Positions 4,420-60,300 of a stretch of DNA of 64,000 bases are shown piece after piece. The stretch is from Lytechinus pictus (lineage: Eukaryota). The stretch lies in contig NC_087250.1 of the NCBI RefSeq assembly GCF_037042905.1, positions 26,476,001 to 26,540,000 on the forward strand. The letters run 5' to 3'. The notes under the pieces are model-generated. The model was not told the DNA's origin, ran no database searches, and saw nothing but the letters and a program-made list of their open reading frames with translations. The position numbers and the translations under genes are program-made. Each line of letters starts with the position of its first letter. Position 1 is the stretch's first letter.

Positions 4420-5593
4420 CTTCAGACCGACCGAAATTCTTTACGTAACATTTCCAAAGAGGGGACATTGGTCGGTGTCGGTTTGGAGTCCGTGTTGTCA
4501 ATATTGGGATTGTTTGTAACATTTTTATTAGTATCTCTTTTTTTTTTTCAGGGTATCAATGAAGCGTGATGTAGTTAGTCTGGTGTAATGCACTTGATTT
4601 AAAGGGGTCTGAATGCAGTATAGAGCCTACAAAGCATTGCGAAAAGAAGCTCATCTCGCTGTCGCTAGAACTGAAACAGAAAAATTGTATTTGAGCTGTG
4701 CTTGTCTGGCGTCTACTTGCTGATTAAAGTTTTAATCAGGGTCTGCGCTCGCAGACTTTTAAGCGCAAGTGATCGTGTAAACATTATTTTCATTTATTAC
4801 CATTTGATTGGTGATACTTTCAACAAAGAATTTAAAAGTAGTAAACATAAATAAAACCATACATCTAGTCATTGAATAAACTATGCGTATCATCATGACA
4901 GCTATTAATTTTATCTTTACACTTTGATTAGTATATGATATGTAATCTTGCAATTTATTGCCCTCAACGATGACATCCAAATCAACCCATGACAAACCTT
5001 GTTCCCTAATAAAATGCATACATATATATATGTATATGTATATGTAATCATGATTACTGTGGCATGAAGGTAACAACTGTCAGATAAATAGAGATCATAA
5101 TCTTATTCGGTCCAGGATGTGTAAGAATATGCGAGCAAATATATCTGTTTATTTTGAAAAATGAGACAACATATTGCATTTGGTACGAGAGACTGACCAT
5201 CAATTGAGTTTTAAAGTACGTGCGTGGATTTCGACCGGGATGTATGTTTTATTGAGTGGGAGAAAGAGGGGGGGGGGGGTCGAGAAGGAAGGGGAGAGAG
5301 GAAGATAAGTGGGGGGCAGAGGATGGGAACAATGAACATTGTATTTTGTCTGATTTAAGTAAGTTATGTATGTCGACATTTGCCAGCAAACACGTATGGG
5401 AGAAGGGGGGTTTATTTTATATATCTTTTAAGCTCAAATATCATTAACCGTCTCGCATTTAATGCCAGTAATTCTTTATAGAAAATACGGCATGAAAGAG
5501 ACAGATATCATTAATTAAAAATGAGTGAATTTCGAAGTACATTTTTGTTCCTTCATCATCGTCATCATATTCATCCAAGTTGTTTCATTACCA

Positions 5594-5835
5594 CACTGCA
5601 AAAACTCCGGTGTTGATTTAACACCAGCCTGGAATCTATATATGTCCACACCAGAGAAGTGTTAACCAACACCAGTTTCGTTTTGGTCTAACACCAGATA
5701 GGTGTTTATACAACACCAATTAGTATTAAAACAGCATCGGTTTGATTCCAAACTGATGTTGCCTCAATACTTCGCTGGTGTGGACATATATAGATTCCGG
5801 GCTGGTGTTAAATCAACACCGGAGTTTTTGCAGTG
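5594..5835. mobile_element. CACT-terminal (EnSpm/CMC-like) MITE
   Basis: CACTGCAAAAACTCCGGTGTTGATTTAACACCAGC TIRs; absent from the paralogous site at ~1275. Relatives at ~19229-19460, ~42385-42445 and ~54610-54837. Confidence 0.85.
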
Positions 5836-6204
5836 TAGTGAGGTTCGATGGTAGCTTCTCCGATTATTTCTCCTTAATTTTTTAATTGGAATAAATTTTG
5901 GAAGTACGGTCCAAAATTACAATAATATGCTTATTGAATGTAAGCCCAAGAAACACCAAATACTTGTGTGTAATAAAATATAAAACAAACACAAAGACAC
6001 GACACACGAAATATAGTTATTGATGGTGACCAGTATGCTGCCGTCTCGTGCTTGTCTTTGCCGTTTATACTGTATAATCATGATTATGGGTTCAAAATAA
6101 AATATTGAATTGTTTTCACTGCTCAGGAGGAAAAAAAGTGACATTTGAATAATGCCCTTATCAACGCAAATTTCCATGACAGGCTCACAATCTTTATGTT
6201 TTAA

Positions 6205-7172: not shown

Positions 7173-9257
7173 CACAACAAAAAAAGTAAGTCCCCCCTAA
7201 ATCAAATAGCTGTAACTTTTGAACGGAATTATTTTGAGATATGATATTCCGTAGGTTATTTTCTACACTCATTAAGCAACTCCTGGAGAAATATAAGATT
7301 GATCGGTTGAGTCATGCATGAGTAATTAAAGATTGAATTAAAAATGAACATTTTTTAAAGTCACAAGAGTTGTTTTTCAGATTGTGCAAATACAAAGTTG
7401 GGCAAATGTTGTCTTTAGGTGAATTTTATGGTGTTATGCTGTTTTAATATCCATCATTTGGCCACTCCACACACAATTTTGATATCATATGTTAAATGTT
7501 GAGTGAGCACAATGTATTGCAGGGGCCGCGGAAGCGAGGGGGGGGCTGGGCGGGGAGCTTCAGTCCCCCCCCCCCCCACTTTTTTCCAAAAGCATGTACA
7601 AAACTGTAAAAATGACCATACGATTGTGATTTTTTGCATGGTCAGCCCCCCCCCCCCCACTTTGTAAACCCTTCCCCGGCCCCTGTATTGTGACGTATCA
7701 TCATAGGGGTTTATGGTAGTATCCTCTACAACTTGTTAGATCATGTTAAAATTTGAAAATGTTGGTGGCTACCCCGATTATAGGCCCCTCCCTCATTTTA
7801 AAATTCTGGACCCACCACTGATTTGTCCATAAATTAAACTGATCATGAGAAATTATTAGGAAAATAATACATTTATGCAGTATAAAGAGTATTCATTCCT
7901 AAGTTTTCGAATGTGCTCGCTCAACCATGAAAATGTTTAAATTTCGGAAAGTGTGTGGTGATAGAAATGATTGATGATAAACAATAGCAATTTAAGTCTT
8001 ATTTGAAACCGAATTTGCCCCCAATATTCACTTTATTACCCTTTAAAATGAGTCTGTGACATTGAAAATACAAATTTTCCCACTTTGATGCGTGCTCACT
8101 CATCCATAAATAACCAAATCGATTTTAATTTGCACAGAATTCTGCCCATAGGTTGATAAACATTACTGCCAAGTGACATTGCTAAAGACAGCCGTGAAAA
8201 AAAGTTCCACCATATTGAATAAGGGGTTACTTATTCTTAAACATGTGCACCCATAATGTACACAAGTCTATGAGAGACGAAGTCAAAATTTTAACAAATA
8301 TGAAATGAGGGTTTGTTTCATGGACGGTTTTTGTTACTTCTGCCAATAGTTATTTCATGAAACTTTGTACATGGCTTCAGAGTAACACTATCCAAAAGGC
8401 GCGCACACCAAAATAACCATTCGATACGACACAGAGTGGGGCCAAGGCCTTGAACTTTCTTCTAATTTGCATAATTTTCGAATATTGTGTGCTCACTGAT
8501 GCATTAAACATCGGGATTTTCATAAAAAATCAAATTAAATGAACTATGCAAGGAGGTTTGTGACAGATATCCATAGTAACAAATTGCATTTTTTCCAATA
8601 ACGTAAAAAAGAGCTAATCGCATTCCACATGTTCATTCAAGCGTTGATATTTAATTAAACGCATTTGAATCATTGAAGCATGTTAATTGGTCATGAACAT
8701 AAAGAAAAAGTTGAGAAAAGATCATTTTCAGTTCCCAAAATGAACCGATACTTGCCTATGATATTTGAAAATCGTATTTTTTGTTTTCCATAAATGTTCA
8801 TTGAACCGTGAAATGATGAATATTGTTGAAGAAACTCTTCCAAAAATAATTGTCATCATATTCTATCATTTTTATTGATATAAATGTGTAAAAAATCAAA
8901 TTATAGCAAATTTGGACTTGTGTTTATTCAACCGTGAAATTTAGCCAAAAAAGTTGTATCGTCTTTTAGAGACTACCTTTTACAAGCCTTCTGACTATTT
9001 TTTATGATGAGAATGTGGAATTAGTTCCAATAAAATGGAATCAAAGTCATGATATTTGGCTTGTGACTTTTGAAAAGTGACATTTTTGCCTTCTGACGGT
9101 GCTCACTGAAGCATGAAGTGAAATACGTCCATAACGTTTACTCAGAGGGTAGCTTCTAAAATTACCTACACGCTCATGTAAAAATATATTAAAAACTCGC
9201 ATTGGTTCGGAAATTATTGATGTTTGTTTAAGGGGGGACTTACTTTTTTTGTTGTGT
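7173..9257. mobile_element. Non-autonomous Tc1/mariner-like DNA transposon
   Basis: TIR CACAACAAAAAAAGTAAGTCCCCCCT at both ends, flanked by TA. The paralogous empty site is at ~2430-2440. Confidence 0.85.
7520..7685. mobile_element. Small MITE nested in the 7173-9257 element
   Basis: CAGGGGCCG...CGGCCCCTG termini, TATTG repeated on both flanks. Confidence 0.7.
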
Positions 9258-9469
9258 ATATATCACAGTAATGAAACTGCAGACTAGACGCTTGAATGGG
9301 CTAATATCATGATGGTCGTTGAAGTGTTGCATTGAGTTTTCGACATGACATTCCGCGTTACCTAAATACATGTACCTTTCTCCTGCCTCCAGGTGGCGTC
9401 CTTCGGGTCTAGGAAGTTGATGGGTTTGCCCGTGTATTGTGTTTCTTGTTTTGCATATATATATATATA

Positions 9470-10710
9470 CAGTGGCGTACCGTGGGTCACGGCATTGGGG
9501 GGGGGGGCACCAGCAAAAAAATTTGAGTCACTTAATGAGCGCGCTTGCCAGGTATACTGACCTAATAGAAACATTTAAAGGACAGTGCCATTAAACGGAT
9601 ATGTATCTCACAGATCAAATAATGCGAGCGCGAAGCGCGAGCTGAAATTTTTTAATATTCAGACCGAGAAAGGGACATTCTAAGCAAATTTCTGTTATCA
9701 TGTTATGTACTGGTCTCACGAATAATACAATCAGAGCGCGAAGCGCAAGTTGAAATTTTTGTATGTATTGACCCCAAACAGGGACATTTTAAGGACTGTA
9801 TTTTAGGAATCCATTTAGAGTATACATATCTCACCATAGTCATCTAATGCGAATGCCAAGCGCTTGCTGATTTGGTTAGAATTACATCTAAACACATGAA
9901 GCACATTTCATATATTATTGTAATCTTGATTATCATATACATCTCACTAATCAAATATTGCGAGCGCGAAGCGCGAGCTGAAAATATTGGAAATTCAGAC
10001 CTGAAGAGGGGCATTCTACGGCTTCTTTGTAGGAATTCACTAAGACCATACGTATTTCACTAACCAAACGATGCGAGCGCGAAGCGCGATCTGAAAATTT
10101 TTTATATTCAGATCAGAAAAAGGGACATTTTGAGGATTGATTTTAGGAATTCATGAAGAGCAGACATATCTCACTAATCCTTTAATGCGAACGTAAGCAC
10201 GGACAGGAAATGTTTTATATTAATACCTTAAAATGGGGCTATCACTTTAAGTAGTCATGAAAAAGAAGCATATATATGTCACCAAATAAAACAATAATAC
10301 GTGCGAGGAAATATATTTGGTGTATATTGACTTAATTTTACAACGTCACGTCTCTCAAATATACTTGAAAAGAAAACTATAGTATTCCGAAAAAATATTT
10401 GATCTATTCCAACTATACAGACAATGCGAGTACCAGGAACAATGAAGCAAATTATGTATCATACAGTTATTAAAAAAAAAAAATTAATGTAATATACAGT
10501 AACATAACATAATTATAATATAATATAATATAATATAATATAACATTATAATGAACAATAATTTCTTCTTTCCCACTACGTTTACTTTTCCTTTCTCTCT
10601 CTTATTCTCCTTTTCCCCGTTTTTTTTTTTTTTTTTTGGGGGGGGGCCAGCCGATTGGGGGGGGGGGGGGCACGTGCCCCCCCCCCTGCCCCCCCGTAGT
10701 TACGCCACTG
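9470..10710. mobile_element. Non-autonomous DNA transposon with internal GCGAGCGCGAAGCGCGAG subrepeats
   Basis: CAGTGGCGTA...TACGCCACTG termini within (TA)n. A related inverted partial copy lies at ~42446-43125. Confidence 0.8.
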
Positions 10711-10834
10711 TATATATATATATATATATATATAATGTGATTACAAATTTACTTGTGCCAAACGCTCTTGAGGTGTGAGTATGAAACATATTGTGATGAG
10801 GCCAACTCAAAATATTACGCAGGACATCATTTTA

Positions 10835-10872
10835 GCTTTAGCTTTCGTCTTTAATAAGACTTCGTCAGGAGC
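10835..10872 (-). ncRNA. Second hammerhead ribozyme copy, inverted
   Basis: Reverse complement reads GCTC-CTGACGA-A-GTCTTATTAAAGAC-GAAAGCTA-AAGC; one stem I mismatch. Confidence 0.65.
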
Positions 10873-10943
10873 GTCTGTAATTACAGACTATTATGGTCAG
10901 AATACGGTAGGCAACCTGACCATAATAGACTGTAATTACAGAC

Positions 10944-10981
10944 GCTTCTGACGAAGTCTTATTAAAGACGAAAGCTAAAGC
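10944..10981 (+). ncRNA. Minimal type I hammerhead ribozyme motif (Penelope-like-element type)
   Basis: GCTT-CTGACGA-A-GTCTT(atta)AAGAC-GAAA-GC-TA-AAGC: stem I, CUGANGA core, stem II, GAAA, palindromic AGCU stem III, CUA cleavage triplet. Confidence 0.75.
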
Positions 10982-11024
10982 TAAAATGATGTCCTGCGTA
11001 ATATTTTGAGTTGGCCTCATCACA

Positions 11025-11058
<34 letters not shown>

Positions 11059-12332
11059 TTATATATATGTATATATATTTATATATATGAATATATATTT
11101 ATATATATGTATATATTTATATATATATATATATATATATCGGTTAAAGCATGGACCTATTACGAATAGGTCCATGGTTAAAGTGAAGATGAAAAAAAAG
11201 TCACCATATAATAAACGAGAAAAAAGGGTACATCCACTTTATTTTGGGGCTACGCAGGGTGAAGAAAACTGTCACCGGGTCTTCAAACAAATTAATATTT
11301 TTTATCAATATTACGCACCTGGGAGTACAACACGTACAACAACTGTACAAATAGGACTGAAAAGAATTGTGTTCAATAGAATTGGTCTCGCCATGACGTG
11401 TACGAGGCTATCAACCGTGACCAACCTCAAACAGCTCTTTGGTTTATAGTATTATGCACGGGTGTACGTCGTATCACATGTATCAGGCGATAATCGGTGG
11501 CCTGCTTCGCCGGCTGCTCGCACGTTGTCTTCGGCGGATCCCCTGGAAATCTTAATGCCGTAATCAAAGACTTGCTTAACCATTCCTGCGTGTTTGATTG
11601 GGGAATACCCTCGTGGAACAGGGAATATCTGAATTTCAACAAGCTTTGTTTTGACTGTGTCAGTAAGCTCTCATTGGAAGTTTCATGCTACAAATTATGT
11701 TGCTTCTGCGGCGACACTACATGTGTTTTAAGCAGTATAGCAAGCCGGAAGTAATCAAAGTGTAGATAAGCATGCCATCGAAGCAGATTTTACAGGGGTA
11801 ATAATCTTTCTTTCAATTGGAGAAACTCTGTAAGTATTAACCATTCAATTTCCTATTGTTTTCTAGATTATTCTCTCAATATAGGCTTACTGGTAATTCA
11901 CATGGGCAGTATTCCCTTTTAGTTTTCATATTCACTTGTACAAAACCCGGTCTGGGTTTGTTGACGGTTAGTTGAAGGAGTTTCTACTCTATAACTTACA
12001 TCCTGATATTAATAGCAATGTAACATACTATGTCAATCAGTATATTGTTATGCAGGGTGAAAAATAAGACAAACAAGCAAACAAAGAGACAAACTTATTC
12101 GAGCTTGGACCATTTTCATGTCCGACTAACTGGGTTGATCCGATATATAGGCCGACACCAGCCACATATACTGTTTTTTCACATTGCAAACATTTATTCA
12201 CAGTGCATAGGCCTATATGTGTATTTTCATAGTTTTATGCATCTTTAGATATTAATTCTAACAACAACTTACTGCAATATACCATGAGTTTTATGCGACA
12301 TATATAATTATTTTACTTGACCTAAATATATA

Positions 12333-13324
12333 CAGTGCGTATAAAAAAAACGGGACAGTTTTAAAAGTCTATAAAAATTGTTTCAAATTATGATATCTAT
12401 ATTTTTATGTTAATAAATGCTCTGAATTCTTATCTTTGAAATGCCATTTAAATTAATAAATTTTGTTCATGCTTGAGCGAACATGGGACGTTTTTGTCGG
12501 TGGTTCAAAAAGAGGCTTGCGCCAAAATGGCAGAAATGAGAAATTTGATGATCAGACTTATTGCTAATCAGCAGACTTCCTTTTTAACCTTTTCATTATC
12601 TTTGCCATGATTTTTGAATTATGCTGTCAAATTTCATTTACAAACTTATTTATTTACTTGAATTATTTTGTTTTTCATTAAAACTTCTTTAACCTTTGAA
12701 TTTTCCTTCATAAAGAAAAGAGGACTTTTTTGTCAACCCAAGCAAGAAGATTTGCATTATCAATTGAGAGAACTTGTAATCATTCAAATCGTATTTTATT
12801 ATGTGACACAAATTATGTTATGGTACCTTTAATAAATATGAATCCTATTTGAAGGGCTATTGATTCCTTGACCAAGTTTAATTTGGAAAAAAATACACGC
12901 TCTCCCATACATCGGTTGAAAAAAAATTGTTTTTGCTTAAAGAAGGAATCTTGAAAGCTAAAAGAGAGCATATTAAAAAGAAACAAAAACAGAACAATTC
13001 AAGCAAATAAAAAGATTTGAAAATGAATTGTGACCGTATAATTCGAAAATTATGGCAAAGATAATGAAAAGGTCAAGAGGAAGTCTGCTGATTAGCAAGA
13101 AGTCCGATCATCATATTTATCAGTTTATGCCATTTTGGCGCAAGCATCCTTTTAACCCCAGACAAAAACATTATGTGTTCACTCAAGCATGAACGAAACT
13201 ATTTTTTTTAATGGCATTTGAAAGACTTCAGAGCACCTATTAACACGCAAATATAGACATCATAATTTGAAACAAAAATTTTATAGACTTGTCAAATCTG
13301 TCTCGTTTTTTTTTTTACGCACTG
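12333..13324. mobile_element. Tc1/mariner-like MITE with long imperfect TIRs
   Basis: TA-CAGTGCGTA...TACGCACTG-TA; the arms are complementary over several hundred bp. Confidence 0.85.
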
Positions 13325-14749
13325 TATATGTGTGTGTGTGTGATAAAATGTTATACGATATTCATTTCGTGTTTACATAAAATACAAATTTATAAGTTAT
13401 AAAGGCACATTGCTAGTCTCCTTGTACAAAAAAACAATGACGAATTTTCTGTATTAATATTATTTTGCAGTCTCTCTTACAAGGCAACATTCCTACAGTA
13501 CGTCGCATGTCGATATAACGCAACGCTCAGTATTAATTGTACTTAGACTAGTACTTCTTTCATTTTAAAATCTACAGGACATTTTTGTTGTACCAGATAA
13601 GATTTCATTTATGTGTATGTACATGTACGGGCTTATGGGCTGCGTCAAATTGGGAGCGACCACCCAATCTCTCCCAAAGATAGTTAGGTACAATGGAGAA
13701 CGCCCTCACAAAAAAGGAAGAAAGTAGACAGTATCGCAATGGTGCTCTTGGAAAAGAAACTAAGTTAACCCCCCCCCCCTCTCTTCACACTGTTAAATTT
13801 GAGTATTATAATTGTGTGAAACACATATCAAAATAGTTGACTGTGTGAACACACTGTCAACACTATAACACTGTCGAGAGGTCCTGAGTGTGAAAATGTC
13901 TTCGCATGGCTGAATTCGAGCATTCACACTGAGAGTTGCATGACACTGACAGTGTTCTTTCCTGGCGAGAGGTCTGCAGTCTGAGACCCCCTACGTTCAG
14001 ACGGGGTACCATGCCCCCCCCCCCCCCCCACCTTCCATAAAGAAAAAGTTTCACGACAAAGAAAATATGAAAAAAATCGAAGGAGGGGTAAACGTGACAC
14101 TATTTTCTGAATGTCATCTCAATCTATCATAAAATAATATTTTCGCATGAAAAAGGTGAAAAGGGGGTCGCCGGATTTTTTTTATATTGCCCTATATAGG
14201 ATGTCTGGCACCCTCTTGTTGCTCATCGCGCTATTTTCTCTTTTTTAACTTTCTTTAAAAGTGCACCCATCAGTTTAGTTTCATTACAAAAGTTACACTC
14301 TAAAAGGTAGTACCATTCATGTTTTGGGTTTCTGTTCAAGACATTAGAATTAGGTTTGAGAACAGTTTCTTCAGGATGGATCTAAGCCCTACTCCACTTT
14401 ATTAAAACCTATCCTGAAAGTGTTCTGCAAGGGTCCGTTTTAGATCTGGACTATTGAAGTTTTTGATGTAGGTCTCAACCTCAAAATGTGATGTCGGCTA
14501 AGGTATTAAATAAATCGTCACTACGTTTACTTCGGAATTACCAAAAGGAAGTTGTGTTCTAGCCAAATTCCACGTATGTTATCCTAAATATGATATATTT
14601 TTAGATAGAATATATGATTTTCGTGTACACATCCCCCTCCCATCGAAAAAAAATATTCGGAGCCAAACTGTATAGATATAATTCATATGAATCATTGAAT
14701 AGCCGGTGGCAAAAGGGTCACATGAACAAACACAAATAAGAACTCCGTG

Positions 14750-17445: not shown

Positions 17446-17799
17446 TTAAAACATGAATGACTCTGTTGTATGTTATACAAGTACAAATATAATAGGTGGT
17501 GGGATGGTGCTATGTGGTGCTTTTTTTTTAAGAAAGACACAAGTTCGATATTCTAATGTATAATGGACATATCCCCCCCCCAAAAAAAAAAAAAGAATAA
17601 AATGGAATTCCTCGATCAGTTGACAGTAGTCACAGGTTTTCGGAAAAAAACTGAATGTCAAGCCTACTTTAATTGTTCTGTGCATTAAGAGACATTGCTG
17701 TCAAGACTAGCCGTTTGACAAGGCCTCGCGACTTGGCCCCTTTCCTCGTCAAGCGGTGGCTGAGACGAGACTAGCGGCAGACGACGAAAATTGGCGATA

Positions 17800-17848
17800 T
17801 TAGTAGTAGCTGTAGTAGTAATAGTAATAGTAGTAGTAGTAGTAGTAA

Positions 17849-17902
<54 letters not shown>

Positions 17903-18004
17903 AAGTAGTAGTAGTAGTAGTAGTAGAAATAGTAGTAGTAGTAGTGGTAGTAGTAGTAGTAGTAGTAGTAATAGTACTGGTAAAAATTATTATTAGTAGT
18001 AGCT

Positions 18005-18058
<54 letters not shown>

Positions 18059-18222
18059 ATAGTAGTAGTAGTGTAGTAGTAGTAGTAGTAATAATAGCAG
18101 TAGTAGTAGTAGTAGTAGTAGTAGTAATAATAGCAGTAGTAGTAGTAGTAGTAGTAGTAATAGTAGTATAGTAGTATTAGTAGTTGTAGTAGTAGTAGTA
18201 GAAGTAGTAGTAGTAGTATGTG

Positions 18223-18271
<49 letters not shown>

Positions 18272-18309
18272 GAGTAGTAGTAGTAGAAGTAGTAGTAGTA
18301 GTAGTAGGA

Positions 18310-18345
<36 letters not shown>

Positions 18346-18346
18346 T

Positions 18347-18400
<54 letters not shown>

Positions 18401-18401
18401 C

Positions 18402-18442
<41 letters not shown>

Positions 18443-18444
18443 CG

Positions 18445-18517
<73 letters not shown>

Positions 18518-18518
18518 T

Positions 18519-18581
<63 letters not shown>

Positions 18582-18582
18582 T

Positions 18583-18627
<45 letters not shown>

Positions 18628-18658
18628 CTAGTAGTAGTAGTATTAGTAGTAGTAGTAG

Positions 18659-18720
<62 letters not shown>

Positions 18721-18747
18721 TGTAGAAGTAGTAGTAGTAGTAGTTAT

Positions 18748-18794
<47 letters not shown>

Positions 18795-18870
18795 ATAGTA
18801 GTAGTAGTGTAGTAGTAGTAGTAGTAATAATAGCAGTAGTAGTAGTAGTAGTAGTAGTAGTAATAATAGC

Positions 18871-18901
<31 letters not shown>

Positions 18902-18986
18902 ATAGTAGTATAGTAGTATTAGTAGTTGTAGTAGTAGTAGTAGAAGTAGTTGTAGTAGTATGTAGTAGTGGTAGTAGTAGTAGTAC

Positions 18987-19037
<51 letters not shown>

Positions 19038-19075
19038 GAGTAGTAGTAGTAGAAGTAGTAGTAGTAGTAGTAGGA

Positions 19076-19108
<33 letters not shown>

Positions 19109-19112
19109 TTAT

Positions 19113-19210
<98 letters not shown>

Positions 19211-19220
19211 GGTATAGTAG
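17800..19220. repeat. (GTA)n microsatellite, ~1.4 kb
   Basis: Direct inspection; explains the poly-V and poly-S ORFs. Confidence 0.98.
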
Positions 19221-19874
19221 TGTTGTTGCACTGCTAAAACACTGGTGTTACATCCGGTATATCACAAAAAACCAGGCATGTGTTGAAAGAACGGCAGATA
19301 ATAATCCAACCTATATTGTCTTAACACTGACATGTGTTGCTGAAATGCATATCCTGGTGTTACCCTAACGCCAGTCCGGTGTTGTTTCAACACCTGTAAT
19401 GTGTTTCCCGATGTACATATCGAGCTCGTATTAAATTAACACCAATGTTTTTTTGCAGTATGCCCATTGTGACTAATGTTGACATTATTCCTGCTGATTT
19501 AATCATAAAAAAATGATTGATAACAATTATAAAAGTTTGCAAACCATCGTCCTCAAAATACTCTGATACTTGCATTATTCCTTTTATTGTAATGATTTGT
19601 TTTCAATCTATCTCTCTCTCTCTCTCTCTCTCTTTCTTGGACTTACTTGTAATTATGTTATGACAATGATTAGGCTTATAATATTCATTTTACACGTACT
19701 AATATGATTTATTTTGTTATGGATATGGGATTAATTTATACAAACAGTTATTTTATTATTTGACCCCTTCGACATATATTTTTAACTGTAGAAATAAAAT
19801 TGAATTGAATAATCTTTCAAATAAGGTAATATCAATATTATCAATTTTCTTTGTAGATATAGAAGGGCGGGAAG

Positions 19875-20015
19875 ATGGCAAGTACTTTTAAGCTAACGCA
19901 GATGCAACTTTACAAAGTAGCAGAGCAGATCAACCCAGACGACTGGCTGAGCCTTGGGATTCGTCTTGGTTTCGTGTATAGTCAAATCCTGCACTGGAAA
20001 GAAGAATATAAAGGG
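19875..20015 (+). CDS. Gene A exon 1: N-terminal half of a death domain (MASTFKLTQMQLYKVAEQINPDDWLSLGIRLGFVYSQILHWKEEYKG)
   Basis: Acceptor ttctttgtag just upstream, ATG at 19875, donor GT at 20016 (phase 0). The pattern L..VA..I...DW..LG..LG....QI is typical of death-domain helices 1-3. Confidence 0.8.
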
Positions 20016-20029
20016 GTATTACATGCTTG

Positions 20030-20863
20030 GCCACCGTCTTACAGAGAGTTACGATTGATCCAATCAATATCAACTGTATTAAAATTCATCCATACCATAA
20101 TTTCTTCTAAAGGAAATTTACACAATATCCTAAAGAGAATCACAGTGAATCTGCAAGAAAATGATGAATATATGATTATCCCGGGGGGGGGGGGCGCTTC
20201 CATCGATGAGTGCGTACCATGCGCGACCATGGGCTCTCGAAAAGCACCCTAAACACGTATTTTCATTTTTTTGAAAATGCACCCCTTAACAAGTATTGGC
20301 GTGTGAAACCCTACCCTTAACAAGTATTGGAAACAAAACGATACTCTTGGCAAGGTCCCTGAATTGACCCCCTAAACAAGAACAGCGAAATTTTTCGGAC
20401 GTCGGTTTTACCTTCACCTACATCATTGGGTCTAGTACAGCCCCACCTCCCTCATCTCGCCCAAATCGTACTCCAAACACGTAGTGTTGACTCTTTGGGC
20501 AAAAATACATCCTTTATAAAACATTTTAGTATTGATGTTTTACACCCTCGCAAATTTGACCCTAAACACATAGCTTTCCTAGCGACAATATATACCCTTT
20601 TTTCATTAGTTTAGTGTTTTTGACACCCTTATAACGTTACGTACGTAACGTGCCCTATCTTGAAAAAGACAATCTTTTTTACGTGTTTTTTTTTGGTCGC
20701 GCATGGTATTCACTCGTCAATGTAAGTGCCCCCCCCCCCCCCCCCGGATGAATATACATCATATGTAGAAAATATTTTGGAAAAAAATGCATTTTAGATG
20801 TTGACATTGCTGGCAGTACATAGTTGTGATTGATCATTCGAAACTCTTTGTAAGACGGGACCC
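20030..20863. mobile_element. MITE (CCGTCTTAC...GTAAGACGG) interrupted by a second TIR element at 20180-20747
   Basis: The outer family also occurs uninterrupted at ~48840-49124. The inner element has CCGGGG...GAGTGCGTACCATGCGCGACCA TIRs. Confidence 0.75.
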
Positions 20864-21366
20864 TGATAATATACCAATCCAACTATTTCTCTCTCTATCT
20901 CTTTCTTAAAATGGGCGTGGCCTCTTGCAGCACTGTGCAATAAACCGTATAAACAATGCTTTGTATAGACTGTTATGTCAGATATCGAAAACAAATCATG
21001 TTCACACGAGATTTCGCAAGGAATTTTTGTCTGAAATAGGGTCATAATTTGTATTCAATTCAATTACCTTGACTGTGAAGATATCATTTCCTATTACTAG
21101 TAGTATTTAATGTCGAAATCATCATCACGAATGTTCTCATTTATATTGTGCATTGTCTTGATAATATGAAGTTAATGATAGTGTAGAAGGTTTCACGGTA
21201 CACCATGTATCTTTCTTGGCCGATTTTTTGTCCTGGAAAGGACCACCCAAACTCGACGTTTCAACAAGTGTATTCCTGTTTCCCCCAAAGACGACAAAAT
21301 AACACGTCGAAACGTCGAGTTTTGGTGGTTCTTTTCAGGATCAACAATTGCCCAAGAAAGATACAT

Positions 21367-21680
21367 GGGCCCGTATTCTGAAGTCGGGTTTAACTTAAAC
21401 TCGGGTTTAAAGTTGTGGTTTAAGTATGGATAGCCAATTGTTACATAAATCACTAACAGTAGAGATATCATACTTCAGCTCATTTGGCTCTCAAACCATT
21501 CATTATTGTTTAGGAAGTATGAAAAGATTATTGTCTTCACCATCGATGAATCAGGAAAGAGCACAGTAAACATAAGAAACATACAACTTGATAAAAAAAT
21601 GTTGATACTTTTGGCTTCCCATACTTAAACCACAACTTTAAACCACAGTTTAAGTTAAACCCGACTTCAGTATACGGGCC
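21367..21680. mobile_element. MITE with GGCCCGTATTCTGAAGTCGGGTTTAAC TIRs
   Basis: Inverted termini of about 65 bp. Confidence 0.85.
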
Positions 21681-30760: not shown

Positions 30761-30865
30761 TATTGATGCAAGGTTGTTATTTTACCCATGTCGGTGTGTT
30801 TATGTTGCCCATCACAACATAAAACCAACATAAAGGCGCCATGCAAGGTGCTCTTTGGATATTAA

Positions 30866-31446
30866 AGGGATGGTCCGGGCTGAAAATATTAATATTTAAA
30901 TAAATAGAGAAAAATTCACAAAGCAAAGTGCTGAACATTTTATCAAAATCGAACAACAAATAAAAAAATTATCAAATTTTCAAGTTTATATATGCACATC
31001 GTCATGAACATTAATTAGGTGGGCTGATGATGTCATATCCCCACTTTCCTTTTGCTTATGTTATTACGTGAAATCAACATTAATTCAATTTTTCATACAT
31101 GTGTAAATGATATGTATCCAATATGATGAAATAAATTGCGGCAATAAATAACTAATGCACTTAATCAGTTTTCAATCTAATTGTGTTAGTTCTTGGTATA
31201 AAAAAATTGAAGAAACCTAATTTAATAATAGAATACCAAAGAACAAGTGGGGATAAAACATCATCAGCCCACCTAATGAATATTCATGAGGACATGCCTA
31301 GAACTGTTTCACCGGAACAATGCAAATCTTTATAATTCAATAAGTTTGTTATTTATTTTCCGATTTTGATCAAATTTTCAGCTTCTTGCTTTGTGAATTA
31401 TACTCTATTTATTGAGATATGAATATCTCCAACCTGGGCCATCCCT
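30866..31446. mobile_element. Kolobok-like MITE
   Basis: TTAA-AGGGATGGTCC...GGGCCATCCCT-TTAA, with the same internal sequence. Confidence 0.8.
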
Positions 31447-32149
31447 TTAATGATAGTCATTTGATTGTCAATAAGTTATACATTGAGAATTTGGTTGTCT
31501 GGAAGAAAACGATTTGGATTTTCTGGGACACCTTTTTATTTCTTTGACGATTCAACAAGATTGTGCAGTGTGGACATTTCATACATGAGTGAATCTCCAA
31601 CCTAGTGTCTCCTTATCATGAAAAGCACTGAAATCCCTCTACGTCCAATAAAGTACTTGATTATGTTATTAATGGTCAATTTGAGAGACTAGTTAATTCG
31701 AAGTCTTCGGATATATCTTTTAGGTTCAATACAACAATATAAATATATTTATGGCGACTTATATTGGCTGGAGTAACAGCTTACATCTACAGGAATCACA
31801 TTTAAGATTTTAATGATTTTCTTTAAAGGTATTTGGGCCCTGTAATTATGATTGCAATTCGTCGTTAGAATTATCGAAACTTTCACACGGAAAATTTGTA
31901 CCGTAATTTGAACGAAACTTAACTGGAATTCACCTCCGGAGTAGAATTTGAATTCGTGATTGTGATAAGCGTTCGTGATTTTAGTTTGATTTCACACGTT
32001 CTAAAATTCGTCATTTGCCTTATTTTTCACTGGAATCATTTAAATTACGATGTTTTTTTTTACCGTGTGAGAAGGCGGTTAATGGTTTAATGGCCCTAAG
32101 TTTCATCTGAGATTTCTTGAAATTATGATCCCGATCTGATGACCATCAA

Positions 32150-35539: not shown

Positions 35540-35990
35540 CAGAAAAATCATGAAGCGAACATGTGTACAATAACTGTACATTCGTACTATTATCTAATGA
35601 TAAAACAAAATTATGTTATTGACTGAGAACCCTTTCAATTTCACAATAGCGTTTTTATACGTTCTTAAAAGAGCTAAAACACCACCGATCACCTTTACAA
35701 CGTGTCGGAAAAAAAATTTAGCGTAAAGAATATAACGGTTTACAGTAGAGTATTGAGCGCTAGGGCAAACGAACAAAAATAAATTCTTATTTAAATACAC
35801 GTCATTGTTCAAAAAAGAGGTTTGGGAGTTTTTAATAAGATGTTGAGTTACAGGGCAGTCCCAAAACAGATGTGAAATACTTTCAACAGAGAAAGAATTT
35901 TGAATTTCATATTTCAAACTAAACACACAGATCTCACTACAGCTTTTAACCCATAAGAAGGCGCTTCCTTGATAAAATTGAATTTTGATT
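35540..35990 (-). mobile_element. 3' fragment of an L1/Tx1-like LINE ORF2
   Basis: ESISHLFWDCPVTQ is a CCHC zinc-knuckle remnant typical of L1/Tx1 ORF2. Confidence 0.7.
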
Positions 35991-36139
35991 TTAACGATAG
36001 TTATTTAAACAGTGAGCAAAGATGTGATCCAGTGACTATCTAAACCCATTTGTAAAGCGGTTACACGTAAAGTTATTTATTTCAAATATTTAGAAAGAAT
36101 TCAGCTTGATTTTTTCCACATACTTTTTATCCTTTCTAG

Positions 36140-52297: not shown

Positions 52298-52575
52298 TTA
52301 GTTCGATTTAAAAAATAAAACATTATAGATATTGAACAGTAGACGTCTAAGACATACCTCTTAATTATTCATTAAAAAAAATCCGCTTAATGAGTTCCAT
52401 TTTCTTCCTATTTTCCTTTGCTCCGACTATTCTTTTTAAATCACAGTGACGGGTAAAGTAAATGTGGCTAATGTACAAGCCTCTCTTCTTTCATGCGCCA
52501 CGTCTGACCTGTCGAGCACTTTATCATAGAGTGCGTAATATTATTTGATTTTTTTTCTTTCCTTTTTTTAAACAG

Positions 52576-53775
52576 GCAAGTCGAGCAAAACAAGAAGCAG
52601 ATGATGCCATCAGAAAGATTTCGAAGGAAAGGGATCGCCACATCCGAGAAATCCACCAAAAGACCGAACAGAAGGAAAAACTGATTCGAGAACGAAAAGG
52701 GTCTTTGCTTGCCGAAATCAGCAGACTACGGGAAAGCTTCGAGAACACGATGAAAGAGAGACGCGGTCGCATTGAAGCACAGGTAAAGATGCGGTCAGGA
52801 GCTAAGGCCAGCCTTACAGCGGTCGAAGAAACCGAACCATGCGACACTCTGCAGAACGTCGCCAAGGATAGTCTTGATACGGTGCGCCTCGTCACAGCCT
52901 CGTGCAGGAAGATCAAATTCACCCGACAACAAAATGACTCGGAAGATCTCGTGGGGACACTCAATGGAGTACAACACTCGTGGGAGTTGCAGCGTAATAT
53001 CCCAATACCCACAAACATATCTTACCCAGAACTCCTTGCAAAAACCAAAGGCAACAGCGGTGTAATCATGACGAACGAGGTTAGATCCGGGCTCTTTGAA
53101 ATAAATACCGATACCGAACAAGCGCGCACGATCATTGCGGACGCGCAGTTCGATATTTGTGACTGTGCATGCGCGTACAATGACACACTCGTTGTAAGTG
53201 ACTACAATAGTAAGACTATTCATATTTATGATTTGACTGGTGCATCGGTGAAATCAATAGGCATCCCGTCGGCCCGCGCTAGGGTAGCCGTGACAAAGGA
53301 TGGCTTGGTGTTGGTCGGAGATGAACTCAACGGGAAAATCTATTTCCTGAATCCCAGGAACGGGAAAATCATCCGAACCTTACCCATCGACGGGAAGAAA
53401 ATTAATGGAATATATTATATGAGCCGTGGCTGGATCGTAATACAAACCGGCATTACGGTAATCAGTGTATATGATGATTTAGGAGTCCTCAGGGAGACGA
53501 TTCAGGACAGTACGTGGAGTGAGCTGCGATGCGCAGTGAGTCGTGACGTCATCTACATCATGTATAAAAAACAAGATGACCCAATCACGTACGTCGGAAT
53601 GCGTTCTCCAAATTCAGGTCGCATCGAGGTGATCGTCCGATGCAAGATATCGAGGTTCCTGCTATCGGAATTCATTGTGACGTCCTCTGGAAATATCGCC
53701 ATCAACGGTGATAATGAGATATTGGTATTTAACCAAGCACCGGGGTACGAAGCTGTTTTGAAGAGGTTAAAGTAG
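52576..53775 (+). CDS. Gene B terminal exon: coiled coil plus NHL-like beta-propeller (TRIM-like family)
   Basis: Acceptor ttttttaaacag, 399-codon open frame plus stop. Heptad-rich K/E/R region, then KIKF...DLVGTL linker, then NHL-like blades (LVVSDYNSKTIHIYDLTG; VAVTKDGLVLVGD..NGKIYFLN). Confidence 0.85.
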   Translation, partial: ASRAKQEADDAIRKISKERDRHIREIHQKTEQKEKLIRERKGSLLAEISRLRESFENTMKERRGRIEAQVKMRSGAKASLTAVEETEPCDTLQNVAKDSLDTVRLVTASCRKIKFTRQQNDSEDLVGTLNGVQHSWELQRNIPIPTNISYPELLAKTKGNSGVIMTNEVRSGLFEINTDTEQARTIIADAQFDICDCACAYNDTLVVSDYNSKTIHIYDLTGASVKSIGIPSARARVAVTKDGLVLVGDELNGKIYFLNPRNGKIIRTLPIDGKKINGIYYMSRGWIVIQTGITVISVYDDLGVLRETIQDSTWSELRCAVSRDVIYIMYKKQDDPITYVGMRSPNSGRIEVIVRCKISRFLLSEFIVTSSGNIAINGDNEILVFNQAPGYEAVLKRLK

Positions 53776-53874: not shown

Positions 53875-54287
53875 CCTCTCAATTTTTTACACGATTTCAT
53901 TATTGTATTAAAGTTAATAGCCGCATAATATCTACCCACTAATCAGGTCTTATCGGATTTTTATGCGACAGGCACATGGGGCCCGTAACACAAAGCTTAG
54001 CAATGATCGTAGAACATTATTCTACGATCGATTGCATTGACTACAATGTACAGTCAATTGTGAGAATTGAGTTTACGATTAATAATTAATCTTTATTTTA
54101 CTGCACCCTGGAAACCATCAACTTGTTGTAAACTACGGTCTACAACATTCATGTGCAATATCAAGCTTTGCAATGGAAATGTATGAGCAATATCGATTTA
54201 AAAGAGATATATTGAGATTATCGTGTTTTTTCATGTATATACCAGATGTGATGAGATTCAAAACATTTTGTATGCAATGCGATACAG

Positions 54288-54474
54288 GTGGGTGTTTCAT
54301 AAAGCTGTTCATAAGTTAAGAGCGACTTTAAGAAAGACTGGTGATCCTTTCTAGTGGCAAATGGTAAATGCACCAAAAATGTTCATTGGCGACGTTTTAT
54401 TACGTAAGAAAGGGTCACCGCTCGGTCATAAAGTCGCTCTTAGCTTACGGACAGCTTTATGAAACATCTACCCG
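54288..54474. mobile_element. Short MITE (GTTTCATAAAGCTGT TIR)
   Basis: Inverted termini; second copy at ~59923-60047. Confidence 0.7.
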
Positions 54475-57209
54475 GTCTGTAATGTTAAATTAGTTACAAT
54501 TAATCTGTTTTTAAGTAGTCTTTCTCGTTTGTGTGACCTCAAAAAGGATAGGTTAATTTCAACAAATATCACTTAACCAGTATATCAACCCATACTCTAT
54601 TAAATTCCACACTGCAAAAATACCGGTGCTAAAAAATACCAGCTCGGAATCTATATAGGAAAACAACAAAGAGGTGTTGAAACAGCACTACTTTAACACC
54701 AGGAATTATTTAAACAACACTAACGTGTTAAACCAATATCGACTTTATTCTTTACTGGTGTTGTTTCAACACTTCCCTGGTGTTTTCCTATATAGATTCC
54801 GGTCCGGTGTTAAAGCAACACATGTGTTTATACAGTGTAACCAGTAAATTAGTTGATTTGGGTCATTTCTTTCACATATTCACTTACAGACTGGTTACTT
54901 TGGCCAATCCTTTTTAAGAAATCATATTTATGAGTGATGCCAAAATCGCGTGTAAAAATTATGTGTTTTCCATATTGTGTGCAGTGAATAATCATGTCTA
55001 TGTTATTGGGGCCGTCGTGGTCTAGTGGTTAAGGTTTTCAATCTTTCAATCCGTGGGACGTGGTTTCGACCTATAGGAAGTAATTCCTCAAAACGCTGCA
55101 TAGCACCAAAATCTGTAGAAGGATACGTGGGCTATATGAATTCTGTATTAGGGCTATTCTATCATTGTTATTGGGGCTATTGTAAATTTATTTTATCAGG
55201 TTTGGGGTGTAATGCAATTGCTGATGGGTAAGGCTAATCAAAGTCATTTCATTTTTTTGGGAACAATTACAACAGTTCCAATGTTTTTTACTAAGAAATT
55301 TTAAGAAAATGTGTTGTATATTATTGGTTTGCCTGCGTGGTTATAAGCATGATAAGTAATCATTTTCATGTAAATAAAAGTAGTAGTAATGTCATATATC
55401 TTTATGTTTTTTCAAACTGTTTACTGTATAGACTACAGAGTCATTGTGTAGCAATTATGATATATTTCGTTTTTTCTATATCCTGGCGCCGGCCGTCCCT
55501 GTTAGATTTTATAAGTAATTTTGCCTGGTTTGTAGAGGAAAATTAGGTTAGAAGTAGAATCAGAATTCAGCAATGATGTTTAATCTTTGAATGTGATTCA
55601 AATGTTGTTATTTAAAATCATCTTTTTTTTTTTTTTTTTTTTTTTTTGGGGGGGGGGGGCATTTTACGTGTATATGATTTATTATCATGATTAGGCTCTA
55701 CATCAGTAATCATGTTTATACAGGGAAAATCGTTTTGAAAAGGAAATTCGGCTTTTTCAGTCAAAATGCGTTTCGGGAAACATAATTTGTACTTTTCTAA
55801 AGAATTGTGTGGATTTCAAATGTGTAAGGTGTGGGTTTTTTGTTTTGTTTTATTTTGCATCATTTGTTTTCTCTCAATAGCGAGCCGCTAGTGTTTTCAT
55901 ACTCAAGGCGAAGCGGAGTTACTCCTGAGTAACTCCGGATAGAGTTGATATGCTTGTACTGCGGACCGACATTACACCCCCTTTCAAACTGGCAAGCTCC
56001 GCAGCGGTGTATCCGAAGTCGTTTCCGTGGTTGTGATGCGGCGGAGTCTCCCCCATGCGGAAATGAATGAAGTTACTCGCGATATAGGCGATACAGCACT
56101 TCCGGTGCGGACTAACTCCGTTTGTAACCCTCTTCACGAAGTGGGTTGAGTACGCCCGCTTTGGACCCGGATCGAAATAATCCTAAAATTTGCATACTGC
56201 CCTCCAAAGTGGAGTAACTCATTCTGGACCCTGGAGTAACTCCACTTCGTCTGTCAAATTGAAAGTGGTATGAGAGAGAGCCACAAGTTGAACCTTAACG
56301 AAACAAAAATTAACAGAGCAAGAACACACCTTTGGGTCCATTTCAAACATTTAAAAGTATTCCAAAAGTTCAAACACGGTAAAAGTTCCACATTTTTCCT
56401 CTCTTCTGCTGTACTTTTTTTTTACGGGTGGGTTTTTATGATACCATAATACTGTTTTTTGTGTCATGGAGTACCTTTCCCTATAGCTTCAAGCTCATGT
56501 TTGCGGCGCCATACATCAAGCTGTATCCTTATCTGTTTTCGTGAATTTTGAAGTGATGTGGTCTATAGATCCTATGCATGGTGAAGTCATAATTGAGTAT
56601 ATGAATATAAAAACAACAAAAAGCCCAAGTCAATAGGAGGTCATTTTGAGGAAATAAAAAAATGATATTATTATTTTTAATTTGGGCAATTAAAGTAATT
56701 TGGCCAAAATACATCAGAGAACATCCTAAAACAAATTTAAGTGTACATTTTTTTTATGAACATTAATATTCACTTTTCTTGTGGGCGGGGCCTTTTGTCT
56801 GGTGGACTTGTATCGTTTTTAGAATCATACGGACTTGGGTCATTCTTACATTTATATACATGGTAGACTTCTGCATGTGTATGTGTGTATTTGATTTTTG
56901 TCAGACGTGTATCAATCAGATATGATTATTTACGTCTGGGCCGACCTGTAGTAAGTAGTAGTAGAAGTAATAAGAGAGGGCGCTATGATATCAATGTACG
57001 AAAAGTCCAAATCCTGGACTTGATCTTTTTTTACACACATACCAGATTTTCCTCATTTATTAAAGGCATTTCTGAGATGATTTCAGAATTATCATTTATA
57101 CACAAGTCATTGTAAAAGGAATTTTCCCCATATTTAACTAAATTTCGCCCCAATTTGGACTAGGGTCGTTTTTAATATCCGGATACTCAATTTCAAAGCG
57201 CCCTCCATC

Positions 57210-57356
57210 AGGGGCCCATTGCAGAAAGAGTTGCAATCAAACGCAACTCTAAAAATAAAGCGCAGTCTCAAATGCGCGCTGTTGATTGGTTGAAAATCGA
57301 GTTGCGCATGATTTTTAGAGTTGCGATTGATTGCAACTCTTTCTGCAACGGGCCCC
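57210..57356. mobile_element. Short palindromic MITE
   Basis: GGGGCCCATTGCAGAAAGAGTTGCAATC...GATTGCAACTCTTTCTGCAACGGGCCCC. Confidence 0.8.
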
Positions 57357-60300
57357 AGATGACATAGCCATACGCGTAAACGGGGGAGTTGTCGGAGATG
57401 CGTCAGCTGCATATTATCACCAACGCAAGGAGGGCAATGGCTTCAAGCTCCAAGATGGCGGCGTGATGACTAATGACGTCATGTGTCTATTCACTTGATT
57501 CTGCCCATCAGCTTGTAATCAGAGTTACGTGTTCTAAACGAATATCAAACTGCAGAAATTACCGTCCATCAGCAAGACCGTGTTGACAACAGTTATAAAC
57601 TGGTTAAAACGGTATGGTGTAATAGTGAATTAACTTATATAAGCACTTACTGGAATGCTCCCCAGGGAGTAGAAAGATGAATTATCAAATGCATACGTAA
57701 ATCAGACCAATAACAGGTGCAATAAATTAATAACGTATATGTAAAGCTCGTAGATTTTTTTTATTCGTATGATTATAAATTTGAGGGTGAATGTATAGTT
57801 GAGAGATTTGTATTGCATTGTCAACATTTCTACCATTCTTAGTGAAGAATTGTAAGCCAATCAGCTCGACAAAGCTCGATGTCAACGCTTGTTTGATGCT
57901 TGTGTGTGTGTGTGTGTGTGTGCTTTTTTTAATTCTTATTATTTGAGGAAAAATAATAAAGTTCATATTAAACCTATGTGCAAACCCCCTCATTGATTGT
58001 ATTTCATTTTGATTTAAAATTGTCCATGATTGATAAAACATGGTATGGCCTAATATTTATATTTACATTTCTAAATCTTCACATGCTTTTGTTAAATCTC
58101 CTTTCTTAAAAAAAGAAATGTTACTTTCCCATGCCCGATTCGAGGGGCTTTTCTTGGCTTTGATTGTTTTGCTTGCCTGTTTGTCTAGATCTCTCTCTCT
58201 CTCTCTCTCCCTCGGTCCAATAACCATTTGGTCCAATACTCACTTCGTCTAATCACCATTTTGTCTCATAACCAGGTTGTCTATAATCAATTTCAATGTC
58301 ATTCGTTTCGCCCAATTAACACCTATTCCAATTAGACCAAATGGTATGGACTAAATTGATATTGGACCAACTGTGTATTAGACGAGATTGTGAGTGGAGG
58401 AAATGGCAATTAGATCATGTGGATAGTGGACGAACTGACGGTAGACCAAATTGAAGTAGACGAGCTGGTAATTAGACGAATGAGAATGAGACCATTTAAA
58501 AATAAACCCTCTCGGCTACCCCCCCCCCCCCTTTATCTCTTTATCATAATACACACTCACTCACTCACGGTATGCTTGGAAGACAAGGAGACGTGAAGTG
58601 GTACATGATGTGCGCGAAAAAAAGTTCTCTATTTCAATTCCCCCCCCCCTTTATTGTATCACGTTAATAATACCCTTTCAATCATCACCTTTCTTCTCTC
58701 TCTCTCTTATTTATGTACATGTATATCTGCCCCTCCCCCCCCCCCCATTCCGTCACTCATATCATCATGTTGTACACTATTATTACCACGTCCCATTGCA
58801 TTCAAACATTTCTCGCTGAGCAGACCAATAAAAATATATTGTACTTTGTTGTCCGATTGACACAATTTTATTGTGAATCAAAATAATCTTTTGATTAAGG
58901 AGCACAATCAATGTGTACATTATATTTTACCATACACCAATTTATCGGCGATCACATCAAGTTTCTTGGAATAAATTCCCAACAATTATTGCTTTAACAT
59001 ACATTCACATGGAGTTACATGTATTCTTTCAATTAAATTGATATTGATTTAAATCAATTATAATCATTTCCATGTTTTACTGAATTACTTTTACAAAGGC
59101 ATCCATCTCCCATCATTGATTACCACTTATTCGCATTAATGCAACAAAGACATTGTTATTGCACCAATTGACCAATATACAACCACAATACGAACATGGT
59201 TCACCCTTTAGGTACATACCCTGTTAAGGAAGGAAACACCTCGTACGATTCTATATTACATAAAACGACTGATCAATATGAATGACAAGACGTTAGTGAT
59301 AATAAGTATATGCATCGGTTGTTTTTATGTGTATTATGTACTGCATTTTACATATCGCGGGATTACTTGGAAGTATAATAGTTATTCAGAAAATGCGAAC
59401 TAGCCAATATCAACATCATATAAATAAGTATTTTAATGATTTGAGCATCCGTTGACAGTGTGTCTGCGGAACGCCGACATCACTATGAAAATGATAATAA
59501 AGAAACAACTCACAGTGATAACTCACAACACGGAGGAAAACGTAAACGCAGGCAAGGTATCGTTCTATTTACAGTTTTTGAGCGTTCCAGCTAGACCTAT
59601 TTCCGGTCCAATTCAGTATCAGACTTGGGCCGATAACAAATACAGTTACACAGAATGAAACACAAAAACTTAGTTATTCAATATAATATAATATAACATA
59701 AACACGAATATTTTCAGACAAGGTGTTCATTAGTTACATTTTTTTAGTTTGATCTTTAAATTCAAGTTGCTGCATGACGCGTTCGAACTCACAGCTACCC
59801 ATGAACAACAACATGACATATCAGACATCTTAGAGCCAGTATTACCCTTGTTGAGTTTAGCCTATAAATCGAGCGCCGCTCTTTTATTTAAGACACTCGT
59901 CGATTTGTCTTTAACAAGAACTGGTGGGTGTTTCATAAAGCTGTTCCTAAGTTAATAGTAACTTTAAGAACATGGTAATTATCATTTACCACAACAAAGG
60001 ATCACCAGTCACTCTTATCTTAAGAACAGCTTTATGAAACGATCCCCTGAAATGCATTCTTAAACGATTACTAATACAGCTTAGATGAGAAGTTATATCA
60101 TGCTTTCTTTTCCAAGGTAATTTCATCCTGATTAACAGTTTCATTTACATTTACAAAAAAAAATGGAAGACGGTTTAAGAGTGTTCAAAATAGACCAAGA
60201 GATCTTTGGCGCACCATACACCCCATAGCAGAGGCTGCAACATTCCATTATATTTTAGCTTTAGTACAGTTCAACACCCCACCATGGAGGCAAGCATAAC

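Follow-up and report, generated by a model that had tools for sequence, protein, structure and literature searches.

A probable Penelope-like end fragment with head-to-head minimal hammerhead motifs in a (TA)n microsatellite

The 64-kb stretch of DNA analyzed here (the window) contains, at ~10735-11028, an insertion that is very probably an end fragment of a Penelope-like element (PLE). It has the form expected if an endonuclease-bearing PLE had inserted into a (TA)n microsatellite in a state that is heavily 5'-truncated and encodes no protein, the product being one pseudo-LTR end with a tail, head-to-head with an inverted, tail-less copy of the same end. What the analysis establishes is the anatomy of the unit, its membership in a multicopy family, the two 3' ends of that family, 53 nt apart, and a junction that recurs at position 10900. 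The first-pass annotation had described a 240-bp hairpin at 10788..11028; its inverted pair is confirmed by the two arms, but the size is not, the span being 241 nt with a 113-bp stem, and the element reaches left beyond those limits, to ~10735. That annotation had overlooked what is most diagnostic of the element, namely its 53-nt tail and the (TA)n target. The features are as follows (X1, X2, X5, and X6 are public RNA runs, introduced below).

10711-10734, no strand: (TA)12, the left part of the target microsatellite; its boundary with the tail is uncertain by 1-2 nt
10735-10787, minus strand: one-sided tail of 53 nt, with which the minus arm finishes at its 3' end; X1 record 3, X2 record 6, and reads of X5 and X6 show arm and tail joined in other copies
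10788-10900, minus strand: arm 1, a pseudo-LTR fragment, sense on the minus strand (from the repeat search, arm comparison, and other copies)
10835-10872, minus strand: minimal type I hammerhead with its predicted cut at 10839^10838, next to which the stem I pair is a C-A mismatch; other copies have the pairing letter at 10869
10873-10888, no strand: 16-nt palindrome directly 5' of stem I; the plus-arm copy, 10928-10943, has one mismatch
10901-10915, no strand: loop of 15 nt where the arms meet head-to-head; a diverged copy (X5, behind 10900, four reads) has its reverse complement with 14 of 15 letters matching
10916-11028, plus strand: arm 2, an inverted, tail-less copy of the arm 1 pseudo-LTR fragment; three contigs have the equivalent end point followed by (TA)n
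10944-10981, plus strand: minimal type I hammerhead with an intact 4-bp stem I, a 5-bp stem II, and a palindromic AGCU helix III half-site; predicted cut 10977^10978
11025-11140, no strand: (TA)n-rich tract that continues the target microsatellite on the right and shares 4 nt with the arm end

On the minus strand, a (TA)n tract leads into the antisense arm, and the loop, the sense arm, 53 more nt, and (TA)12 follow. The arms (10788-10900 and 10916-11028) are 113 nt each, are 98% complementary, and lie 15 nt apart; they differ at two sites (10887/10929 and 10869/10947), which makes the insertion fairly recent, in agreement with its earlier description as young. The inverted 5'-truncated copy adjoins at the 5' end, that is, head-to-head, and the extension is found on one side of the unit only, beyond the minus arm, where its 53 nt exceed the usual 30-40 nt. 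An ATG at 10789-10787 on the minus strand, ~50 nt beyond the predicted cut site of that arm, starts a frame without a stop up to the tail end; the six variant sites in the tail across copies comprise two silent and four residue-changing sites and no stops. No target-site duplication is readable, the insertion site being a (TA)n microsatellite, and the 64-kb window holds no further copy of the element or of the hammerhead.

That each arm carries a minimal type I hammerhead, the minus copy with one mismatch, had been proposed in the first-pass annotation and was verified in the sequence; a descriptor-based hammerhead search of the 64 kb returned only two cores, these plus and minus copies. The plus motif consists of stem I GCUU/AAGC (10944-10947 with 10978-10981), the core CUGACGA, an extra A (A10955), stem II GUCUU/AAGAC (10956-10960 with 10965-10969, closing a 4-nt loop), and then GAAA and GC. 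With C3 at 10948, U16.1 at 10976, and A17 at 10977, the cut predicted earlier, after 10977 on the plus strand, is correctly placed by core numbering. The conserved core positions on the plus strand are 10948-10954, 10970-10973, and 10976-10977, and the minus copy (C3 at 10868) is likewise complete, so that both strands have C3 U4 G5 A6 N7 G8 A9, G12 A13 A14 A15.1, and U16.1 H17. The extra nucleotide, A10955, lies between positions 9 and 10.1, the G10.1-C11.1 pair is G10956-C10969, and helix I is short (4 bp on the plus strand, 3 bp behind the mismatch on the minus strand). Positions 15.2-16.2 are palindromic, permitting a dimeric helix III (AGCU self-duplex, -2.5 kcal/mol). An Rfam scan of 8000-14000 at E up to 1 gave no hammerhead family and three weak miRNA matches only, a silence on hammerheads that is uninformative for so reduced a motif. 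Six of 200 simulated 64-kb windows (second-order Markov) contained one passing motif, a chance level of ~3% per window under a descriptor that in the real window is passed by the plus copy alone; the second copy is a duplicate, not independent evidence against chance.

The motif shows all four traits listed for the minimal hammerhead ribozymes (min-HHRs) that PMC4209133 (Cervera and De la Pena 2014) defines in metazoan PLEs: the extra nucleotide between 9 and 10.1, G10.1-C11.1, the palindromic 15.2-16.2, and the short helix I (here and below, published work is represented by the available portions of each paper). It is also of type I and has no loop 3, as they do. Unlike most rows of the available supplement, which have C-G, it has G15.2-C16.2, and it differs further in its 5-bp helix II and CUA triplet; moreover, the published min-HHRs lie in PLEs, whereas the link of the window family to a full PLE is putative. 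The alignment in that paper includes CUGACGAA cores, one of them from a sea urchin. Dual min-HHRs ~100-700 bp apart on opposite strands are described there for Schistosoma mansoni, and the inverted opposite-strand pair is thus an arrangement already published, in 2014, from other animals.

The anatomy points the same way. In Adineta vaga Pen2a_Av and related Penelope insertions (PMC3846280), pseudo-LTRs are likewise inverted head-to-head, with an optional tail at one 3' end (31 bp), palindromes at the junction, near the pseudo-LTR 5' end, and a pseudo-LTR plus tail that cover the first ORF codons; the available text gives head-to-head as the usual orientation of inverted PLE copies and proposes self-priming. 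The window element differs in having no ORF, no direct pseudo-LTR, a tail of 53 nt, and no readable target-site duplication. PLE insertions with an adjacent inverted truncated copy and a 30-40 bp tail at one end are also described in PMC8557442, where a microsatellite bias is hypothesized for Neptune and where Naiads are said to target (TA)n and to be without hammerheads. A microsatellite target combined with a hammerhead makes Neptune, a clade marked by a CX2-5CxxC linker between reverse transcriptase and endonuclease, the likeliest clade here, at about an even chance. Together, motif traits, tail, anatomy, and other copies support the first-pass reading of the insertion as the terminal fragment of a Penelope-like element, with an inverted end and a minimal hammerhead of the dimer type. 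The label of retrozyme, also raised there, does not fit: the available text of bioRxiv 10.64898/2026.07.22.740005 defines retrozymes as tandems, and non-LTR retrozymes, although similarly short, non-coding, PLE-derived, and equipped with a type I hammerhead, are head-to-tail with two ribozymes on one RNA, whereas the window pair is head-to-head on opposite strands, with no head-to-tail tandem. No reverse transcriptase (RT) or endonuclease ORF, such as the telomerase-like RT plus GIY-YIG ORF expected of a full-length copy, was found in the 64-kb window; a tblastn search of the window with two PLE proteins matched nothing but 24 aa at 10780-10851 (E 0.072) and the mirror of that segment (E 0.63), which lie antisense to the hammerhead and are attributed to chance.

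When metagenome contigs were scanned for the hammerhead core, the stem II loop being left free, eight loci representing seven distinct elements came up (L005 and L008 are one element); a looser motif gave 0 matches in viral contigs. A GIY-YIG ORF lies on the strand of the motif in three of the eight loci, or two of the seven elements (E 1.1e-4 and 1.9e-4), a PLE-like ORF being absent from the other five loci. In L004, the motif is 19 nt past the stop of the GIY-YIG ORF (E 1.9e-4, just below the Pfam cut-off); in L005/L008, it is located between a second ORF and an 838-aa frame that has a GIY-YIG domain (E 1.1e-4) as well as a stretch resembling RT (E 0.0015, to a group II intron-like RT), and stem I is UUCC/GGAA as against GCUU/AAGC in the window element. 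L002, L003, and L006 have no ORF of 120 aa, and L001 and L007 look bacterial, with the motif probably there by chance. These loci share with the window only the motif by which they were selected, and they show what the motif marks rather than which element was the partner of the window family. Two of them, L006 (620-797) and L002 (372-487), belong to an unrelated genome and have a similar head-to-head inverted hammerhead region in which the second core is diverged or shortened. The L005/L008 element (~5.09 kb; L005 1-5165, L008 1-5215) was assembled twice in circularly permuted form, possibly from a collapsed tandem array or a true circle; one of its two ORFs encodes ~640 aa, of which the 460 aa scanned matched nothing in Pfam, and the other encodes RT plus GIY-YIG; the hammerhead lies ~60 nt before the first ORF, and the Cys-rich linker between RT and GIY-YIG is one that we take to be Neptune-like.

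Other copies of the family come from a search that yielded 10 runs of one organism, four of which contained part of the stretch and none of which was listed as a source of RNA from this locus itself; the best share of words was 0.30, and the source organism may therefore be a relative rather than the species of the window. One arm plus tail and loop (10735-10915) served as reference, and four of the 10 runs were compared with it: X1 (five contigs), X2 (four contigs), X5 (11 reads), and X6 (12 reads), with ~6% of X5 and X6 sampled. Identities to the window element range from <90% to >99%, indicating a multicopy family; none of the 23 aligned reads (from ~6% of these two raw RNA runs) reaches 99%, and two fall at 95-99%. 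In three contigs (two from X1, one from X2), the match to the element stops at 10788, the point where arm 2 stops, and a loose end of (TA)n follows; other records, including reads from a clearly diverged subfamily, pass 10788 into the tail. Because some copies stop at 10788 and others cross it, the tail belongs to the element, which has two alternative 3' ends 53 nt apart, the signature of a Penelope tail. At the other end, copies break at 10867 (two contigs), 10892 (two), and 10900, that is, they form a dispersed family with variable 5' truncation. Position 10867 lies inside the hammerhead core, and the two contigs that break there come from different runs and have different flanks; it is possibly a preferred truncation point.

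The copies also show which letters of the arms are their own. Since other copies mostly have the stem-I-restoring letter at 10869, as the plus arm does, the mismatch of the minus arm is private to it, and the letter of the plus arm at 10929 is private as well, since no alternative letter is listed at 10887. At 10813, 10816, and 10827, both arms have the same letter and differ from other copies, which is consistent with one template for both arms. In the nine contigs and 23 reads, a small sample drawn from RNA, there is no compensatory change in the stems, which counts against the PLE reading, as do the long tail and the lack of an RT or endonuclease ORF in the window. None of the 13 listed substitutions falls in the 30 nt of core and stem II, which is not significant (~0.07, calculated by hand), and the diverged X5 copy has a 6-nt deletion that takes out the 3' strand of stem I. 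No pile-up of read ends is listed at the cut site, at a depth of at most 7 and with 23 reads in all.

The hairpin has a computed folding energy of -195.2 kcal/mol (z = -34; none of 200 shuffles was equally stable), and its read-through RNA would be long dsRNA, as the first-pass annotation had anticipated. Because that RNA is predicted to form a 113-bp duplex, both cores would be blocked from folding: whichever strand is read through, the first stem II pair forms with a computed probability of ~4e-15. Taken alone, in an RNA that starts in the loop and runs along the plus strand, the plus copy has stems I and II as its predicted fold (pair probabilities 0.91-0.97); in an RNA running from the loop along the minus strand, stem II forms and stem I rarely does (at most 0.09), the two test RNAs differing in length. 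Helix III is predicted only between two RNAs (4 bp, -2.5 to -4.5 kcal/mol), and hammerheads on opposite strands cannot supply each other's helix III within one RNA. The proposal of a potential self-cleaving site on both strands is thus not supported, for three reasons, namely the duplex that buries both cores, the lack of a helix III in cis, and the mismatch at the cut in the minus copy, and on these models working self-cleavage on both strands is unlikely. The head-to-head arrangement would mask the ribozymes rather than double them. In either direction the antisense arm would be transcribed first, and the core would meet its complement on emerging; one hammerhead would be exposed only in a transcript that begins in the loop or close to it, and to cut it would still need a second molecule or the protein of the element. 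The hammerheads would then be passengers in the insertion, the self-cutting motif is probably inactive at this locus, and the locus is most likely inert or, at most, a predicted source of dsRNA.

We propose that the RT/GIY-YIG protein of a partner element acted in trans and nicked the (TA)n target, that reverse transcription started at two sites 53 nt apart, and that the two cDNAs, one per site, were joined near the pseudo-LTR 5' end; alternatively, a single cDNA may have folded back near that end and copied itself. Each arm would later have acquired one substitution. The route by which PLEs arrive at inverted pseudo-LTRs is called unresolved in the available text of PMC8557442. An experimental parallel is Poseidon PAc of Anolis carolinensis (PMC11167929). 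In vitro, its protein acts on both strands of AT-rich DNA, nicking and extending each, and reverse transcription begins at two sites that bound the tail. PAc resembles the window fragment in its AT-rich target, its two alternative ends around the tail, and a hammerhead near the junction of pseudo-LTR and ORF; it differs in being autonomous and assayed, and in a start codon that is overlapped by the hammerhead; in the window, the candidate ATG lies past the cut site. The PAc hammerhead needs the protein of the element and is dispensable for insertion in vitro. The window fragment is thus one more case of the published Penelope anatomy, compact and clean, with both 3' ends, tail, and junction in <300 nt.

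A refinement of this reading is that the whole fold-back unit, a ~300-nt hairpin of inverted arm, loop, arm, and tail, is a mobile, non-autonomous PLE derivative copied whole by a PLE protein, and the junction bears on it directly. Four X5 reads (two starts), from a copy <95% identical, leave the arm at 10900; there follow the loop in reverse complement, matching at 14 of 15 letters, then 10 additional letters and the five with which the arm begins. At exactly the same position, X2 record 6 (depth 80) switches strand, and one X6 read, with the letter of the minus arm at 10869, enters the loop by ~4 nt as judged from depth bins. The recurrence argues against an artefact and means that the fold-back point is not random; it may reflect either a fixed fold-back site or a hairpin moving as a unit. 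A fixed site in the pseudo-LTR would yield the identical junction without any movement of the unit, other copies break at 10867 (with different flanks) and at 10892 instead, X2 record 6 is without most of the second arm, two molecules and one contig are a thin basis, and library fold-back chimeras are possible; movement as a unit is rather unlikely. A narrow literature search, covering few subscription journals, found no paper on a hairpin-only PLE family mobile as a unit. If it were true, the family would be a fold-back retroelement, non-autonomous and with an RNA that hides the ribozymes it carries, hammerhead cleavage would be dispensable for PLE movement in vivo, the step that makes inverted pseudo-LTRs would be pinned to a definite site, and family-specific dsRNA could readily arise from every new copy. 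Where a junction recurs throughout a family, the joining of twin cDNAs would also be testable against fold-back self-priming.

The long, near-perfect arms with TA at both outer ends, and the several TA-flanked inverted-repeat elements elsewhere in the window, would also suit a MITE-like DNA transposon with long terminal inverted repeats and a TA target that holds the hammerhead-like sequence by accident. However, the 53 nt outside the left arm accompany it in diverged copies, so the arms are not the termini of the element, a contiguity that largely refutes this origin; with single-arm fragments truncated at differing points and a motif that has every PLE min-HHR trait, we regard it as very improbable. 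Still less credence goes to the view that the host retains the hairpin for a function, as a two-way ribozyme or regulatory element that cuts transcripts of both strands upstream of the neighboring gene. The plus copy folds when alone, and related copies are present in RNA runs, but the read-through duplex blocks both cores, helix III is intermolecular only, the minus copy is damaged, and there is no sign of age or conservation; in addition, published min-HHRs are inactive as monomers and cleave at low levels as dimers (PMC4209133), and the Anolis hammerhead depends on the element's protein (PMC11167929), as far as the available texts go. Near-perfect inverted repeats are a known type of assembly or library fold-back artefact. 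This is the least probable of the explanations for the hairpin, given that the arms differ at two sites, each difference being private relative to other copies, that the tail is on one arm only, that the tail-less end and the junction recur in independent runs, and that the X6 read combines the minus-arm letter at 10869 with entry into the loop.

The sequence just before helix I has, in both arms, a branch-point-like pentamer with an AG 22 nt further (10900-10875 on the minus strand, 10916-10941 on the plus strand), which are putative splice signals; the D. virilis Penelope intron ends at helix I (PMC4209133). Immediately to the left of the fragment lies another element (9470-10710), bordered by (TA)n at either end; its terminal inverted repeat is perfect over 10 bp, and it contains diverged ~113-bp tandem repeats. 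The (TA)12 on its right also flanks the Penelope-like fragment on the left, so that insertions have entered the tract more than once. Next to the (TA)n tract, on its right, is a perfect 12-bp hairpin with a 3-nt loop (11150-11176), possibly the end of a third repeat. A ~1-kb inverted-repeat element at 12328-13329 is MITE-like, with 74% arm identity and TA-flanked ends, and other palindromic elements are located at 1509-1972, 5590-5839, 21203-21368, 30861-31451, 54287-54472, and 57206-57361.

As for coding sequence, the likely first exon of the neighboring gene (gene A; 19863-20252, plus strand) lies ~8.8 kb from the hairpin and has no Pfam match at E 0.01; its product presumably has a death-domain-like character, and the analysis gave no evidence of a connection between this gene and the hairpin. 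A 408-aa open frame at 52549-53775 (plus strand) resembles B-box/NHL-repeat proteins (Atlas score 0.96), with a weak beta-propeller match only in Pfam; the NHL/B-box clusters that a window protein resembles are mostly from Mollusca, with one from Echinodermata. A short frame at 35594-36004 (minus strand), without a Pfam match, contains a motif that we take to be that of LINE C-terminal zinc fingers. Finally, 17700-19250 is occupied by ~1.5 kb of trinucleotide microsatellite with a strong GC skew.
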